A stretch of DNA of 38,933 nt from IMG/VR virus record IMGVR_UViG_3300021399_000041, positions 1-38,933 of that record. One strand, given 5' to 3'. Source of the stretch: a virus. Below the pieces are notes generated by a model that was not told the origin of the DNA, searched no databases, and saw only the letters and a program-made list of their open reading frames with translations. This document shows, in pieces, positions 1-38,933 of this stretch (the first letter of the stretch is position 1; each line of letters begins with the position of its first letter). The position numbers and the translations under genes are program-made.

Positions 1-107
1 CGCCGTTTACGATAGTTGGCAGCGGCGCGGTATTTGGGTTATCGGCCTGCGCCGTCTTCTGCCCCGTCTTTGATACCCACCAGTTACCAAATTCGTCCTG
101 CACGGCT
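1..107. repeat. Terminal direct repeat identical to 38827-38933 (circular-assembly overlap or terminal redundancy)
   Basis: cgccgtttacgatagttggc...attcgtcctgcacggct was read at both ends with no mismatch. Confidence 0.95.
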
Positions 108-184
108 TGGTTTACATAGTAGCCGCGCGTAGAATCATAACGCCCTACGGTTCTGATTCCTGCAAATCCTATTAAAATTCTCAT
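1..184 (-). CDS. 5' end of the DGR target/fibre gene after circularisation; adds 27 N-terminal codons (MRILIGFAGIRTVGRYDSTRGYYVNQA) upstream of the GTG at 38929 (equivalent to position 103)
   Basis: ATG at 184-182 is in frame (81 nt) with the ORF that starts at 38929 (equivalent to 103). There is no stop between them. An AT-rich spacer follows the stop of the 211..1596 gene. Confidence 0.6.
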   Translation of the reverse strand, partial: MRILIGFAGIRTVGRYDSTRGYYVNQAVQDEFGNWWVSKTGQKTAQADNPNTAPLPTIVNG

Positions 185-34934: not shown

Positions 34935-35537
34935 TTAGATGGTAAATGTTAGCTTTTCGGGATAGCCTGCCGTGAAGTCATACGCCAGTATTTCTTCCAC
35001 GGTCAAAGTCATGTCGTCAATAGCGGCCAAATGTGCGCTGGTTTGGTTGTAGCACTTCACCGCGTACACTTCCAGTTCTTGCAACATGGCCAGCAGCTTT
35101 GCACATTCTATTTCCGGCGACAAATCAAACTCCCTAATATCCAAATGGTAGTTACCTTTACGGGCTGACTTCCACGCGCTGACGCTTTCGCGTATCTGTG
35201 CGCGCTTCGCCACGGGTAGCCAGTAGGGAATAGTAGTGCCTATGGCCTCAACTTCAAAGCTGAATTCATTAATGGCTGCGCTGTTGTCGTAGTCGTTAAT
35301 GGCCTGCTTCATAAACTGGCGTGCTATGGCCGTCGCTTCTGTCTCGTCTGTTTCCAGTTCGATGTAGTTGGCCACATGTACGGTACGCTGGCGTGGTTCC
35401 TCGCCCTCGCCTGCTTCGTCGGTTACTTCACGCTCTGAATGATTAAAATAGACGCGCTTCACGGTCTTACCGTCGCGCGTGGCTACCGTCTGCACTTCCG
35501 GCTGGCGGCTGTTGGCTTCGTCTTGTTTGTAAATCAT
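34935..35537 (-). CDS. Hypothetical protein (200 aa) downstream of the DGR
   Basis: ORF; no motif recognised. Confidence 0.6.
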   Translation of the reverse strand: MIYKQDEANSRQPEVQTVATRDGKTVKRVYFNHSEREVTDEAGEGEEPRQRTVHVANYIELETDETEATAIARQFMKQAINDYDNSAAINEFSFEVEAIGTTIPYWLPVAKRAQIRESVSAWKSARKGNYHLDIREFDLSPEIECAKLLAMLQELEVYAVKCYNQTSAHLAAIDDMTLTVEEILAYDFTAGYPEKLTFTI

Positions 35538-35742
35538 ATTCTATAACTTTAAGTGGTTCTTTCTCTTTGTCGTTCAGCGCGGCAAAGTAATAGTACCCGT
35601 CACGCTTTCTTATTATCTTCGTGTAATGTGGCAGTTCTGCTTCAGTGCCGCGTATTGTCTTCAGCAACTTGTAGCCCTCTGCTAACAGCAGACGCGCTTC
35701 TATTGCGCCGTCTTCCACATAGTACACTTGCGCTGCCAGCAT
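35467..35742 (-). CDS. Possible small ORF (91 aa) directly after the RT; coding status uncertain
   Basis: The ATG at 35742 (MLAAQVYYVEDG...) lies 35 nt after the RT stop. The ORF overlaps the next gene by 71 nt. The longer version to 35886 would overlap the RT. Confidence 0.3.
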   Translation of the reverse strand: MLAAQVYYVEDGAIEARLLLAEGYKLLKTIRGTEAELPHYTKIIRKRDGYYYFAALNDKEKEPLKVIEYDLQTRRSQQPPAGSADGSHARR

Positions 35743-35776
35743 CTCTTTTCCTGCGTGCAACTGACTGGCCGTTATC

Positions 35777-37132
35777 TCAAAATGGCAAATCAGCAGCGGC
35801 TTGTAAAGCAGCTGGCCGCAGTAGGCGCGCTTTCCTAAATACTGGTGCTTTAGTATCTTTTGCCCCCTCGATGTCGATAAGTCCATATAGCGGATATTGT
35901 GCTTTATGCTCCGGGCTTCTGAAGTCCGGCGCGGTTGTTAGTATCTTTTTCAGTTTGTTGTGCCATGCCTTTTGTCTGTGCCTGCGCTTCACCTCTGCAC
36001 GGCCAGCAGCCAGCATGTCGAAAAATTCCGGGTATTTCCGTTTCCAGTAGTTTATAAGGTTCGCCACGTCCAAATCTCGCAGACTGCCGCTAACGCCAGC
36101 CCAGCTTTGCATAGCCTTTTCCGGGTTCCAGCCCTCACGTATGCGCGTCTTCATCATTGCTTCCACTCTCCGGCGGCTCACACGTCGAAGCCACGCGCGC
36201 CTGCTGTTCACCATTGCGCCCAAACACTCAAAGCGTTCTTTTTCCACATTCAGCACGCGCCAGTTAGCTTTCAGCGTTTGCTTCATATCATCCTCAACAC
36301 TGGCACGTAGCACGCGCATAGCCGTATGCAGATAGTTTACGTCTTTGTGTATCATATATTTGTCGTCACAAAAGCGGTAGTAGCGGCGTATCTTATAGGC
36401 TAACAAAAGCTGCCAGTCTGTCGCTGCGTGGTAAACATGACCTAACACGTTGCTACTTGGCAGTCCTAAAGCCATGCCTACGCTACCCATGCGGCTAAGA
36501 TTCACTTCAGACAGCCAAAGCAGCCATTTGTCTTTGATATGGTCTGCCAGTATCTTCAGCAGCACTTCGTGGTTTGTTGTAGGGTAGAATTTGGCCGTGT
36601 CGCCAGTACCTACGAATAAGTCCGGCCTATGCCTCACTTTGCGGATAATCTCACGCCGCATGTCATGCTGGCCTTTGCCCTTGATGCTGCCGTAGCTGTT
36701 GGCTGGTATGATATGCTTCTTTTCCATGAAGACGTACTGAAGACAGTCGAAATACAAAATGTCTACTATCAATTCTTCCGGCCTGCTGGCATAGATTACA
36801 CGGTGCTTATTGTTTTCTTTCTTGTCGAAGACAATAAACGCGCGCGGCTTCCATACCATATAGCGAAGCTGGTAGTAAAGCCGCGTAACGTTTTCGTCTA
36901 AGTGTCCTAACCAGTCATGCCATGCGGCGCGTATCTCGTTAGTCCATTCCTTTTGTTTTTCGGGTCTGTTCAGATATTCCACTATTAGCAGAATTCTTTC
37001 GCGCGTCAGCATCCGCTTTCGCACATTGCCCACTTTCTTTGTCATTTTAATGCGTTTGCTAATTGGCGACACCATTTCTTCGTTCGGACTTATTCCCGTG
37101 CCGTCCTGCCAGTCATGCCAGCCTACTGCCAC
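35777..37132 (-). CDS. DGR-type reverse transcriptase with atypical motifs
   Basis: RT motifs in order: NKHRVIYASRPEELIVD (1/2), NSYGSIKGKGQHD (2a), GTGDTAKFYPTTNH (A/3), GLPSSNVLGHVYH (4), YYRFCDDKYMI (C/5), FECLGAMV (6) and QSWAGVSGS (DGR thumb motif ASWxGH-like). Immediately 3' of the TR. Start is uncertain (GTG 37132, ATG 37075 or ATG 37045). Confidence 0.85.
   Translation of the reverse strand: MAVGWHDWQDGTGISPNEEMVSPISKRIKMTKKVGNVRKRMLTRERILLIVEYLNRPEKQKEWTNEIRAAWHDWLGHLDENVTRLYYQLRYMVWKPRAFIVFDKKENNKHRVIYASRPEELIVDILYFDCLQYVFMEKKHIIPANSYGSIKGKGQHDMRREIIRKVRHRPDLFVGTGDTAKFYPTTNHEVLLKILADHIKDKWLLWLSEVNLSRMGSVGMALGLPSSNVLGHVYHAATDWQLLLAYKIRRYYRFCDDKYMIHKDVNYLHTAMRVLRASVEDDMKQTLKANWRVLNVEKERFECLGAMVNSRRAWLRRVSRRRVEAMMKTRIREGWNPEKAMQSWAGVSGSLRDLDVANLINYWKRKYPEFFDMLAAGRAEVKRRHRQKAWHNKLKKILTTAPDFRSPEHKAQYPLYGLIDIEGAKDTKAPVFRKARLLRPAALQAAADLPF
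35834..35872 (-). promoter_or_regulatory. Late-gene bipartite repeat, copy F, inside the 3' end of the RT gene (CATCGAGGGGGCAAAA-N16-GTATTTAGG)
   Basis: Plus strand has tttgccccctcgat at 35859-35872, encoding IDIEGAK of the RT. The distal half is a weaker match (cctaaatac at 35834-35842). Confidence 0.45.
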
Positions 37133-37251
37133 ACGTTTGCCTACTTGCTGTCTTTAAGTGTCTAATTTGATTGTGCAACCTTTGGCACCGTTCTGAATTC
37201 CATGCTTTCTTTTGATACATATTTCCGGCTGTGTGACAAAACAGCTGGCCA

Positions 37252-37356
37252 TTAGTTCACCGCCCGCGTTGGTTCCAGTTCGCATTCCCAGCCGAATTGT
37301 TCGCATTCCGAGCAAACACGCCACAATTCGCGCCGTTGTTCGAGTTCCCACCAGCG
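37252..37356 (-). repeat. DGR template repeat (TR)
   Basis: Non-coding copy of VR, offset exactly 260 bp. In the VR frame it reads AGGNSNNGANCGVFARNANNSAGNANWNQRGR and is rich in AAC/AAT codons. All differences from VR are at TR adenines (T on the plus strand). Confidence 0.9.
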
Positions 37357-37477
37357 GGCTGGAATTCAGCCCGTCGCGCATATTAAGCCATGCGCCGCTA
37401 ATTCTCTTTGACAGACGCGCGGCGCGCCCGGCCATTCAAAACCGGGTCGCCGTTCATCTGTTCAACTTGGCTTCGCC

Positions 37478-37490
37478 GTCGCTTTGCGAC
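37478..37490 (-). other. Small hairpin 12 nt downstream of the target stop codon (candidate DGR homing-associated hairpin)
   Basis: Minus-sense GTCGC-AAA-GCGAC, flanked by the 13-bp direct repeats at 37453-37465 and 37501-37513. Confidence 0.35.
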
Positions 37491-37501
37491 ATTCAGCTGC
37501 T

Positions 37502-38929
37502 TCATCTGTTCAAAGCACACCGCCCGCGGAGGTCCCAGTTCGCATACCCAGCCGAAGCGGACGCAGACCGAGCAAACACGCCACAAAACGCGCCGTTGAG
37601 CGAGGTCCCACCAGCGTAGAAGACCGTACCGCCACCAGTAATTAAATACTGGCCGTCAGTAACGCCCGTGCTGCTGCTGCCGTCTTCGTCTTCAGCCATG
37701 CCAAAGAAGTTAATATTCTTTGGATATTTCCAGTTATTAGCATCTACGACATGGAAATTAACGGTAATCTCTGCGTTATCGTCGGTAACGGTTACGGCGG
37801 CGTTAGCCTTTACGTCGTCCATTGTGAATTTAGCCACGCCGTTGGCTGTAAACTTCCAGCCAGCACCCCAAAGCCACTGCTTGCCGTCGATGGCATTTTC
37901 GCAATACATAAAGCGATGGCCACCGCCAACAGCACCACATGCAGCTACCAGCGTGTCAGTGGTTCCGGCTACCCAGTTACGTGCTGCTGATTCACCGCCG
38001 CCGTTCATCTGACCGCCGCGTGCTGTAGCCACGTCGAATGTACCGTAGTAGGCGACTTCCAGCCAGCCGAATACGATAATCTCCCACGCCGTCCAGTTCA
38101 GCAGATTGGCATTTGTTGCCACGGTCATGCTGTGAATGCTGTTTGCGCTGAAGTTGCCAGTAGGCTGGCTGTTTCCGGCGGCGCAATCCAGTGTAGTGCC
38201 GTCTTCGTTGAAAGTCAGGTCGTAGCGTCCCATGCACTTTGTACCGTTCTTAAACCAGCGATAGAAGCCGTTAGGACATACGCTGTCTAAGTTGAAGTAC
38301 ACCGTCATGGTACGGTCTAACAAGTTGATAAACGGTGCTACGTTGATGTTCTGAAGTTCCACCAGCTGCAAATAGTCGTTTTTGTCGTCAGTGGCGTAGT
38401 GGCTACCCGTGCCGTCTGCGCGCTCCGTCCAGTTCACGTTACTGGCTACGCCAGCCTCGTTACGCAGATAGGCAAAGTTCGTGAAGTCTTTCTTGATTTC
38501 ACACGGTTTGCCGCTGGTCTCTACCCACGTCTTAAACTTGTTGTAAAGCGTGGTGTTTCCTACTACGGTAATGGTCTTTACCGCGTCGTCGATGTTCCAG
38601 CGTATGCCAAAGCTGGCCAGCTGAAGCGTCTGTAGTTCGTTAGTCACCTTTGCGGCGATTTCTCCGATTTGCCCGGTAATGACTTGTGCGTTAGCCTCTG
38701 CGTGTGCTGCTGCTGCTTTAGCTGCTGCTGTAGCTGCTTGGCATTCTGCAATAGCCTGCGAAGCCGGAATGGTTACACCAGTCTGCATGTCGATACCCAG
38801 CTGCCAGTCTTCTGATGGTGTCTGTTCGCCGTTTACGATAGTTGGCAGCGGCGCGGTATTTGGGTTATCGGCCTGCGCCGTCTTCTGCCCCGTCTTTGAT
38901 ACCCACCAGTTACCAAATTCGTCCTGCAC
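37502..38929 (-). CDS. DGR target protein: fibre/receptor-binding protein with a C-terminal C-type-lectin-like variable tip (continues to the ATG at 184 across the circular junction)
   Basis: 475 aa in the window, about 502 aa once circularised. N-terminal fibre-like segment (GNWWVSKTG..., Ala-rich coiled coil AATAAAKAAAAHAEANAQ). C-terminal GGxxxNGAxCG...W..R..C pattern typical of DGR CLec-fold variable proteins. Confidence 0.9.
   Translation of the reverse strand: MQDEFGNWWVSKTGQKTAQADNPNTAPLPTIVNGEQTPSEDWQLGIDMQTGVTIPASQAIAECQAATAAAKAAAAHAEANAQVITGQIGEIAAKVTNELQTLQLASFGIRWNIDDAVKTITVVGNTTLYNKFKTWVETSGKPCEIKKDFTNFAYLRNEAGVASNVNWTERADGTGSHYATDDKNDYLQLVELQNINVAPFINLLDRTMTVYFNLDSVCPNGFYRWFKNGTKCMGRYDLTFNEDGTTLDCAAGNSQPTGNFSANSIHSMTVATNANLLNWTAWEIIVFGWLEVAYYGTFDVATARGGQMNGGGESAARNWVAGTTDTLVAACGAVGGGHRFMYCENAIDGKQWLWGAGWKFTANGVAKFTMDDVKANAAVTVTDDNAEITVNFHVVDANNWKYPKNINFFGMAEDEDGSSSTGVTDGQYLITGGGTVFYAGGTSLNGAFCGVFARSASASAGYANWDLRGRCALNR
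37512..37616 (-). repeat. DGR variable repeat (VR), last 35 codons of the target gene
   Basis: Encodes AGGTSLNGAFCGVFARSASASAGYANWDLRGRCAL. There are 15 mismatches to TR in the 99-bp core (37518-37616 vs 37258-37356) plus 4 in the 6-bp 3' extension, all opposite TR adenines. Confidence 0.9.
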
Positions 38930-38933
38930 GGCT
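38827..38933. repeat. Terminal direct repeat identical to 1-107
   Basis: Exact 107-bp identity with the start of the window. Confidence 0.95.

Follow-up and report, generated by a model that had tools for sequence, protein, structure and literature searches.

The window analysed here is the whole 38,933-nucleotide stretch of the IMG/VR virus record IMGVR_UViG_3300021399_000041 (positions 1 to 38,933). It contains a phage diversity-generating retroelement (DGR), and the question raised by this locus is whether the reverse transcriptase (RT) of the element is a DGR enzyme of the ordinary kind. The initial annotation had described an RT without the DGR signature in motif 4, in which infidelity at adenines would be achieved with different residues; a motif re-invented in this way would bear on how DGR RTs achieve adenine-selective infidelity. 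The answer reached here is that the window very probably carries an active phage DGR with a genuine DGR RT, the motif 4 of which reads LGLPSSN. This RT belongs to a clade without Avd, in which a small basic protein with a predicted beta-barrel fold is the candidate for an Avd-like cofactor. The cassette is encoded entirely on the minus strand in the order target gene with its variable repeat (VR), template repeat (TR), structured spacer, RT and small basic protein, and the TR, RT and small protein together span approximately 2.2 kb. Its parts are as follows:

37502..38933, minus strand: target gene, 3' part, encoding a putative tail fibre or receptor-binding protein; crosses the circular junction
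108..184, minus strand: target gene, 5' end, the first 25 codons and part of the 26th; colinear with locus L012
37518..37616, minus strand: VR, inside the last ~40 codons of the target gene
37258..37356, minus strand: TR, 99 nt with 22 adenines; identical in loci L012 and L018
37046..37257, minus strand: TR-to-RT spacer, ~210 nt, with conserved sequence blocks (six-locus alignment)
35777..37045, minus strand: DGR reverse transcriptase gene, 422 aa from the likely ATG start; the open frame reaches a GTG at 37132
35467..35886, minus strand: small basic protein gene, 139 aa, isoelectric point (pI) 9.3; overlaps the RT 3' end; candidate DGR accessory factor

Adenine-specific diversification of the variable repeat

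All 15 mismatches between the TR and the VR of the window are located at TR adenines (chance p ~1.6e-10), as the initial annotation had seen when it described a divergence restricted to adenines. Its further proposal, that the enzyme is active, is borne out by near-identical phages that share a TR and differ in their VRs at adenine sites. One related locus (L012) is identical to the window. A second (L018, IMG/VR 3300021387_001618) encodes an RT that is 99% identical to the window RT, and it exhibits no differences in the TR and 15 differences in the VR, all of them at TR adenines. In a phage that is 96.5% identical (L011), the TR features four non-adenine changes and the VR of the same phage carries three of them, so information has passed from TR to VR after the two phages diverged.

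The pattern extends through the clade of related RTs. An adenine-specific VR/TR pair is present in 22 of the 22 clade loci with enough upstream sequence, where the VR lies at the end of a homologous gene of ~420-500 aa and is followed by the TR, with mismatches almost exclusively at TR adenines. Non-adenine mismatches are found at some loci, namely L007 (3/17) and L009 (1/14). Over 4,341 nt, 10 positions distinguish the clade phages L024 and L025, each of them a VR position at a TR adenine; the pairs L016/L021, L017/L019 and L004/L005 likewise exhibit a varying VR beside a constant TR. As judged from these comparisons of natural sequences, VR diversification is adenine-specific and ongoing, and the element appears to be active in nature. 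In the mechanism proposed here, the TR-containing RNA would be copied by the RT, which would misincorporate opposite template adenines. The resulting complementary DNA (cDNA) would replace the VR at the C-terminus of the tail-fibre-like protein, and this replacement would alter host recognition.

The small basic protein encoded after the reverse transcriptase

The usual site of Avd is between the VR and the TR, which in the window lie ~160 nt apart, and no open reading frame (ORF) fits there. No Avd-like Pfam family was identified on the cassette genes, on the neighbouring genes of any locus or on the 31 other ORFs of the window. Directly following the RT is the gene for the small basic protein, which begins at RT codon 416 such that the last ~36 RT codons (35777-35886) are overlapped in another frame. 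In each of 29 loci out of 29, a homologous small gene lies directly against the RT stop or overlaps it. The homologous proteins are 109-149 aa in length, around 115 aa being usual, with a pI of 7.7-9.8, typically about 9.2. In two homologues, P0055 (568 aa) and P0066 (581 aa), the small-protein domain is fused in frame to the C-terminus of the RT. Most clade members have their RT stop within a few codons of the small-gene start, which suggests that the RT and the small gene are translationally coupled and that the RT tail of the window is a lineage-specific read-on.

An AlphaFold2 (AF2) model of the small protein, with a predicted local distance difference test score (pLDDT) of 84.9, features a beta1-beta2-beta3-helix-beta4-beta5 barrel and a C-terminal helix, in an OB-like topology. 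The protein does not exhibit any match in Pfam, in PHROG or in the PDB sequences, the last searched with a profile. Its PDB fold matches are weak (best E=0.018, TM 0.2-0.3), though enriched for RPA, SSB and PriB, and no Avd chain is present among them. Within the BFVD viral fold library, it matches domains of two RT-annotated proteins (E ~2e-4 to 4e-4). A profile search for further homologues, which was probably limited by its word index, returned clade members only.

Four classes of DGR accessory protein have been published, namely Avd, HRDC, MSL and CH1 (PMC5758913). The small protein resembles Avd in size and in its basic pI and departs from the definition of Avd in its fold, which is predicted to be a beta-barrel and not a four-helix bundle. 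From CH1, an acidic protein of 160-169 aa and pI 4.7 (PMC5758913), it is set apart by description, through its size and charge. If the predicted fold is correct, the small protein fits no published accessory class by size, charge or fold, and no description of it was found in the searchable literature. From its conserved position and its fusion to the RT, we infer that it is an Avd-like cofactor of the RT and its RNA, and it is designated here a candidate.

The alternative that survives best is that the small protein is an ordinary phage gene product kept in place by synteny, for example a tail-fibre assembly factor, and that the element is a DGR without an accessory gene (Architecture A). Such a DGR would be nothing unusual, Architecture A being common among catalogued DGRs (PMC5758913), and the synteny is shared in several loci by another downstream gene, described below; the small protein is also without a confident fold assignment. 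This explanation is unlikely but keeps appreciable weight. It does not account well for a small gene that stays at the RT stop in every one of the 29 loci, even where the next genes differ or lie on the other strand, nor for the two in-frame fusions to the RT. The fold matches to domains of RT-annotated viral proteins and the Avd-like size and charge also argue for the candidate cofactor.

The reverse transcriptase: motif 4, catalytic box and affiliation

The RT ORF at 35777..37132 is real, lies on the minus strand and encodes 451 aa from its GTG start, which is the numbering used here for residues. It contains every string quoted in the initial annotation: KGKGQHD, GDTAKFYPTTNH, GLPSSNVLGHVYH, YYRFCDDKYMI, FECLG and QSWAGVSGS. 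The positions on which its affiliation turns are:

36449..36469, minus strand: RT motif 4, L222-G-L-P-S-S-N228, the (I/L/V)GxxxSQ signature with Q replaced by N
36800..36802, minus strand: R111, counterpart of bRT R74 (profile alignment); invariant in the clade
36362..36373, minus strand: catalytic box F254-C-D-D257, the YxDD equivalent (translation)

Motif 4 had been read as GLPSSNVLGH, with neither IG nor SQ, and adenine infidelity had been attributed to other active-site residues. That a motif was re-invented here is highly improbable. The glycine that was held to be missing from position 2 is present as G223, and of the SQ dipeptide the serine is present as S227; only the last residue is non-canonical, N228 standing where Q is expected. 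In a phmmer alignment with bRT (PDB 8ub7), the bRT residues V-G-I-P-I-G-S-L-T-S-Q pair with V-G-M-A-L-G-L-P-S-S-N of the window RT. A profile of 34 clade members aligned with bRT gives the same register (E=1e-19) and covers residues 25-323, which is nearly the whole of bRT. A hidden Markov model (HMM) of the 128 nearest relatives outside the clade likewise places its consensus GlpIGnytSqlfaNlyL on GMALGLPSSNVLGHVYH. In the reciprocal search of the window RT with this canonical HMM (188 bits overall), the motif-4 stretch is gapless and receives the top posterior probability. The alignments continue without a gap from motif 4 through the following GH(V/I)YH.

The register of the initial annotation is shifted by four residues. 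It paired G223-L-P with the canonical GLP that precedes IG, a reading invited by the literal GLP at 223-225, and it needs a four-residue insertion or deletion relative to every other DGR RT; the true counterpart of the canonical GLP is G219-M-A. The clade is divergent enough to escape Pfam RVT_1, and the residues after the motif differ consistently, with GH(V/I)YH in place of the canonical (G/A)NxYL, both of which are compatible with a departure from the standard motif. All profile alignments nevertheless select the other register, in which A221, L222, G223 and N228 are invariant among the 34 clade members and S227 is nearly so. The annotation had itself named a profile alignment with the motif in another register as the result that would overturn it, and this is largely what was found. 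L222, G223 and S227 supply the hydrophobic, glycine and serine positions of the DGR motif, and the terminal Q is lacking, with N228 fixed in the clade.

Experiments with bRT have shown that R74 and I181 promote adenine mutagenesis (PMC7826257). Their counterparts in the window RT are R111 and L222, both of which are invariant in the clade. The deviating residue N228 corresponds to Q187 of bRT, where the substitution Q187P leaves the frequency of adenine misincorporation unaltered (PMC7826257). The idea that adenine infidelity is achieved through different motif-4 residues is therefore unsupported: the motif reads LGLPSSN, the R74 and I181 counterparts are kept, and a change at Q187 does not affect the frequency of adenine misincorporation in bRT. 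Since R111 and L222 are retained, the RT most likely uses standard DGR chemistry and not a new solution, as far as can be judged from residue conservation. Of 155 DGRs surveyed, 15 vary in the final two residues of the motif (SP, SH, NQ, PA, AQ and VQ), or about 10% of the catalogued DGR RTs (PMC3521204), and SN is a new member within this known class of motif-4 variation.

Outside the clade, SN in place of SQ or an Asp-to-Asn change at the second catalytic aspartate is also observed in individual relatives (P0097, P0114, P0138, P0154, P0182, P0196, P0199, P0223; P0125, P0185). Both changes are sporadically recurrent in the wider family of DGR-like RTs.

The FCDD box noted by the initial annotation is present, and its description as a departure from the DGR norm does not hold, as it lies within published DGR variation. 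In the YxDD box of catalogued DGR RTs, Y is replaced by F in 14%, and x is M (53%), V (33%) or A/C, with both catalytic aspartates conserved in 100% of the 2012 survey (PMC3521204). The FCDD of the window agrees with this rule. Within the clade, R253, F254, C255 and D256 are invariant and D257 is replaced by Asn in several subclades, such that the FCDN relatives depart from the rule. Asn occupies the second aspartate position in 13 of the listed clusters (P0006, P0025, P0029-31, P0034-35, P0040-41, P0043, P0047, P0053 and P0080), which fall into at least 3-4 separate groups in a neighbour-joining tree. The FCDN codons were verified at the DNA level, and the motif states were taken from HMM columns, a plain regular expression having given spurious first matches in P0066 and P0006.

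The FCDN loci exhibit the same adenine-specific divergence as the rest of the clade. The share of VR/TR mismatches located at adenine sites is 15/15 in L013, 12/12 in L026, 15/15 in L027, 13/14 in L009 and 14/17 in L007. The FCDN phages L022 and L023 have the same TR and, over 6,148 nt, a sequence identity of 99.0%; their VRs differ at 16 positions, 15 of which are adenine sites, and the mismatch density in the VR is in ~21-fold excess. Replacement of the second catalytic aspartate by asparagine is expected to impair polymerase catalysis. The sequence record suggests that it is tolerated in the catalytic box of this clade, or the FCDN loci may be diversified by another RT that complements them in trans.

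That expectation is also what would favour reading the RT as a decayed relic, with N228, F254 and the N257 of relatives as marks of lost function and the TR/VR differences as old ones, and the few non-adenine mismatches at L007 and L009 point the same way. The probability of this reading is very small indeed. The comparison of the window with L018 refutes it for the lineage of the window, and the 10 adenine-site differences out of 10 between L024 and L025, within 4.3 kb, speak against it elsewhere in the clade, as do the TR point changes copied into their cognate VR. Moreover, about 70 clusters, reaching down to 40% identity, have an uninterrupted RT ORF in which the motifs are invariant.

By both sequence and fold, the best match of the RT is bRT, as expected of the DGR reverse transcriptase that the initial annotation had proposed. 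The clade profile finds bRT (8ub7) as the best PDB sequence match (E=1e-19, 74 bits), followed by a CRISPR-associated RT (53 bits) and by group II, DRT2 and retron-type RTs (29 bits at most). The best fold match is 8ub7_A (E=8.9e-18, TM 0.86 normalised to bRT, root-mean-square deviation 3.0 Å), with DRT9, group II, G2L4 and retron RTs ranking below it. PHROG 1423 ("reverse transcriptase") matches the RT at 1.6e-38. The matches to the NCBIfam group II intron RT (9e-12) and retron models, and those to PADLOC RT_UG17 and others (1e-11), are weak and far below threshold, and they were rejected as family assignments. A non-DGR RT (group II intron, retron or defence-associated UG/DRT) that happens to adjoin a repeat is hardly credible, since these sub-threshold matches, the only ones in NCBIfam and the weak ones in PADLOC, are outranked by bRT, the closest relatives in the outgroup have the DGR signature, and the VR-TR-RT synteny holds in 22 of 22 loci.

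The lineage is divergent, as the initial annotation had suspected. The RT has no match to Pfam RVT_1 at E<=1, and an exhaustive HMMER search of 1.84 billion representatives, which returned 5,959 relatives, exhibits a sharp drop in score around the clade: scores above 300 bits are confined to seven clusters (at 50% identity), after which the best match falls to 180 bits. Every clade member features ALGxx(S/T)(S/A)N...GH(V/I)YH and RFCD(D/N), with the single exception of one RYCDN, and the outgroup relatives almost all feature GLPIGNxxSQ...(G/A)NxYL and RY(C/M/A)DD. In sequence terms, the clade is positioned next to or within the canonical DGR RTs, yet a sharp break sets it apart from them.

Nucleotide and protein searches of 50,697 GenBank phage records did not provide a close relative of the RT; the best matches are crAss-like and Hankyphage-type DGR RTs at ~25-30% identity. 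One clade locus was found among 185,579 GTDB species genomes, in a metagenome-assembled genome (MAG) of a Prevotella sp., and the clade locus is present in 17 IMG/VR contigs. A set of 5.8 billion proteins contains about 67 clusters at 90% identity, five of which have a source name, in each case "hypothetical protein". The clade phages are associated with Prevotella and Bacteroidaceae, the host labels being MAG record titles.

Genomic setting, related systems and significance

The two ends of the window share an exact 107-nt overlap (1-107 = 38827-38933), which gives a circular assembly of ~38.8 kb, and the window is a complete, circularly assembled genome of a temperate siphovirus-like phage of gut or rumen type. 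The phage genes encoded by the window include terminase, portal, prohead protease, major capsid, tape measure, integrase and endolysin. The target gene is located in the tail and lysis region and spans the junction, join(184..1, 38826..37502), beginning at 184 on the minus strand and encoding 502 aa. Its VR ends 8 codons short of the stop, and homologous target genes lie upstream of every related RT. The target protein has no match in Pfam or in the PDB sequence search, and it is considered a putative tail-fibre-like or receptor-binding protein. In DGR targets generally, the variable residues are displayed on a C-type-lectin or Ig fold. The ORFs at 37154-37435 (minus strand, 93 aa) and 37212-37619 (plus strand, 135 aa) cross the TR and VR and are most likely repeat artefacts, not genes. 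Downstream of the small protein, a gene of ~200 aa at 34935-35537 (minus strand) is kept in several related loci at 31-45% identity and is without a family match. Its synteny indicates that conserved gene order in these phages reaches past the DGR cassette.

The true start of the RT is most likely M30, encoded by the ATG at 37045, which is where 33 homologues and the canonical DGR-RT profile begin; the AlphaFold model, with a pLDDT of 85.4 overall, has residues 1-29 disordered (pLDDT < 50). At the other end, the ~130 aa beyond the thumb given by the initial annotation reduce to ~84 aa (residues 368-451) past the last residue aligned with bRT (~367). Residues 368-400 form a long helix that is confidently modelled and conserved in the clade; past the helix, a DxRS...YP block extends the conserved part to about residue 412. 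The stretch 417-451, which is where the small gene overlaps the RT, has a pLDDT < 50 and is confined to the closest relatives. Approximately 45 aa of the extension is a real conserved feature.

The spacer between TR and RT contains sequence blocks that are conserved across loci with 40-60% RT identity. A hairpin at 37171-37190 features a 6-bp helix, three pairs of which exhibit two-sided changes among the six loci. An Rfam search of the TR/spacer region gave no match. The spacer is probably part of the DGR RNA and, by analogy with the spacer RNA of BPP-1, may scaffold or prime reverse transcription. Both the TR and the VR are GC-rich at the 3' end, and just beyond it they differ in a fixed way, with TGCTTT in the VR and AACTAA in the TR, as a possible IMH-like boundary. 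A further hairpin lies beyond the VR:

37478..37490, minus strand: GC-rich hairpin GTCGC-AAA-GCGAC, starting 28 nt downstream of the VR

Of 13 clade loci, 11 have a GC-rich hairpin at this place beyond the VR, with a sequence that varies from locus to locus. These hairpins, whose role is putative, recall the target-recognition hairpin of DGRs.

Compared with the DGR of the Bordetella phage BPP-1 (bRT-Avd-TR RNA, 8ub7 series), the element shares the order target(VR)-TR-RT on a temperate phage, the adenine-specific transfer from TR to VR, the RT fold (TM 0.86), the R74 and I181 counterparts, the hydrophobic, glycine and serine core of motif 4, the GC-rich 3' end of the repeats and the hairpin after the VR. 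It differs in the N that ends the motif in place of Q, in FCDD as opposed to YMDD, in GH(V/I)YH as opposed to ANVYG after the motif, and in an extra conserved C-terminal helix of the RT, with a sequence identity of only about 20%. No Avd was found in the window, nor is there room for it between VR and TR, and the gene for the basic beta-barrel protein follows the RT.

The Avd-less DGRs of Bacteroides and relatives (Wu et al. 2018) are similar in the lack of avd, the TR immediately upstream of the RT, the Bacteroidales host range and the phage or mobile-element context. In that scheme Lineage 3 is without avd, and Architecture E1 with CH1 occurs only in Lineage 3a (PMC5758913). By description, the accessory protein there is the acidic CH1 of 160-169 aa, whereas a basic protein of 109-149 aa is encoded here. 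With the variants in the DiGReF survey (PMC3521204), the clade shares the change of Y to F, C at the x position and adenine-type VRs that are kept despite the variants. It differs in SN, which is unlisted there and is fixed in the whole clade here instead of sporadic, and in the FCDN subclades, the aspartates being fully conserved in that survey.

Several points weigh against the reading of the element as an active, Avd-less DGR with a substitute cofactor. Avd genes are poorly conserved (PMC5758913), such that one could be present and yet escape a Pfam scan. The cofactor role draws on synteny among related phages and on two fusions; gene order alone can conserve neighbours, as the ~200-aa gene illustrates, and fold searches gave the small protein no confident family, the best PDB match having E=0.018. 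The activity of the clade RTs is read from comparisons of natural sequences. The terminal residue of motif 4 is outside the variants listed in the 2012 catalogue (PMC3521204), and N228 may subtly affect the spectrum of misincorporation. A bolder proposal, that the locus represents an Avd-independent DGR type in which an OB-like basic beta-barrel protein, coupled or fused to the RT, replaces Avd and in which the second aspartate of YxDD is dispensable, is put forward tentatively, as a possibility that is slightly less likely than not.

With the re-invented motif set aside, the locus offers no new route to the question of adenine infidelity. What appears to be new, as far as the compared genomes indicate, is an SN-type clade that Pfam does not recognise and in which no Avd was found. 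Its basic partner with the predicted beta-barrel fold is conserved and in some members fused to the RT, and its FCDN members are apparently active. This clade would escape DGR detection that starts from Pfam RVT_1 or requires a strict SQ motif, and public records (P0001, P0028) label its members "hypothetical protein". Being compact (~2.2 kb) and, on the evidence of its repeats, naturally active, the system is a candidate for targeted-diversification tools that operate without Avd. For the family, the lineage is a naturally occurring test of which components of the bRT-Avd-RNA machine can be replaced, with a candidate cofactor of another predicted fold and an Asp-to-Asn change in the catalytic box that appears to be tolerated.

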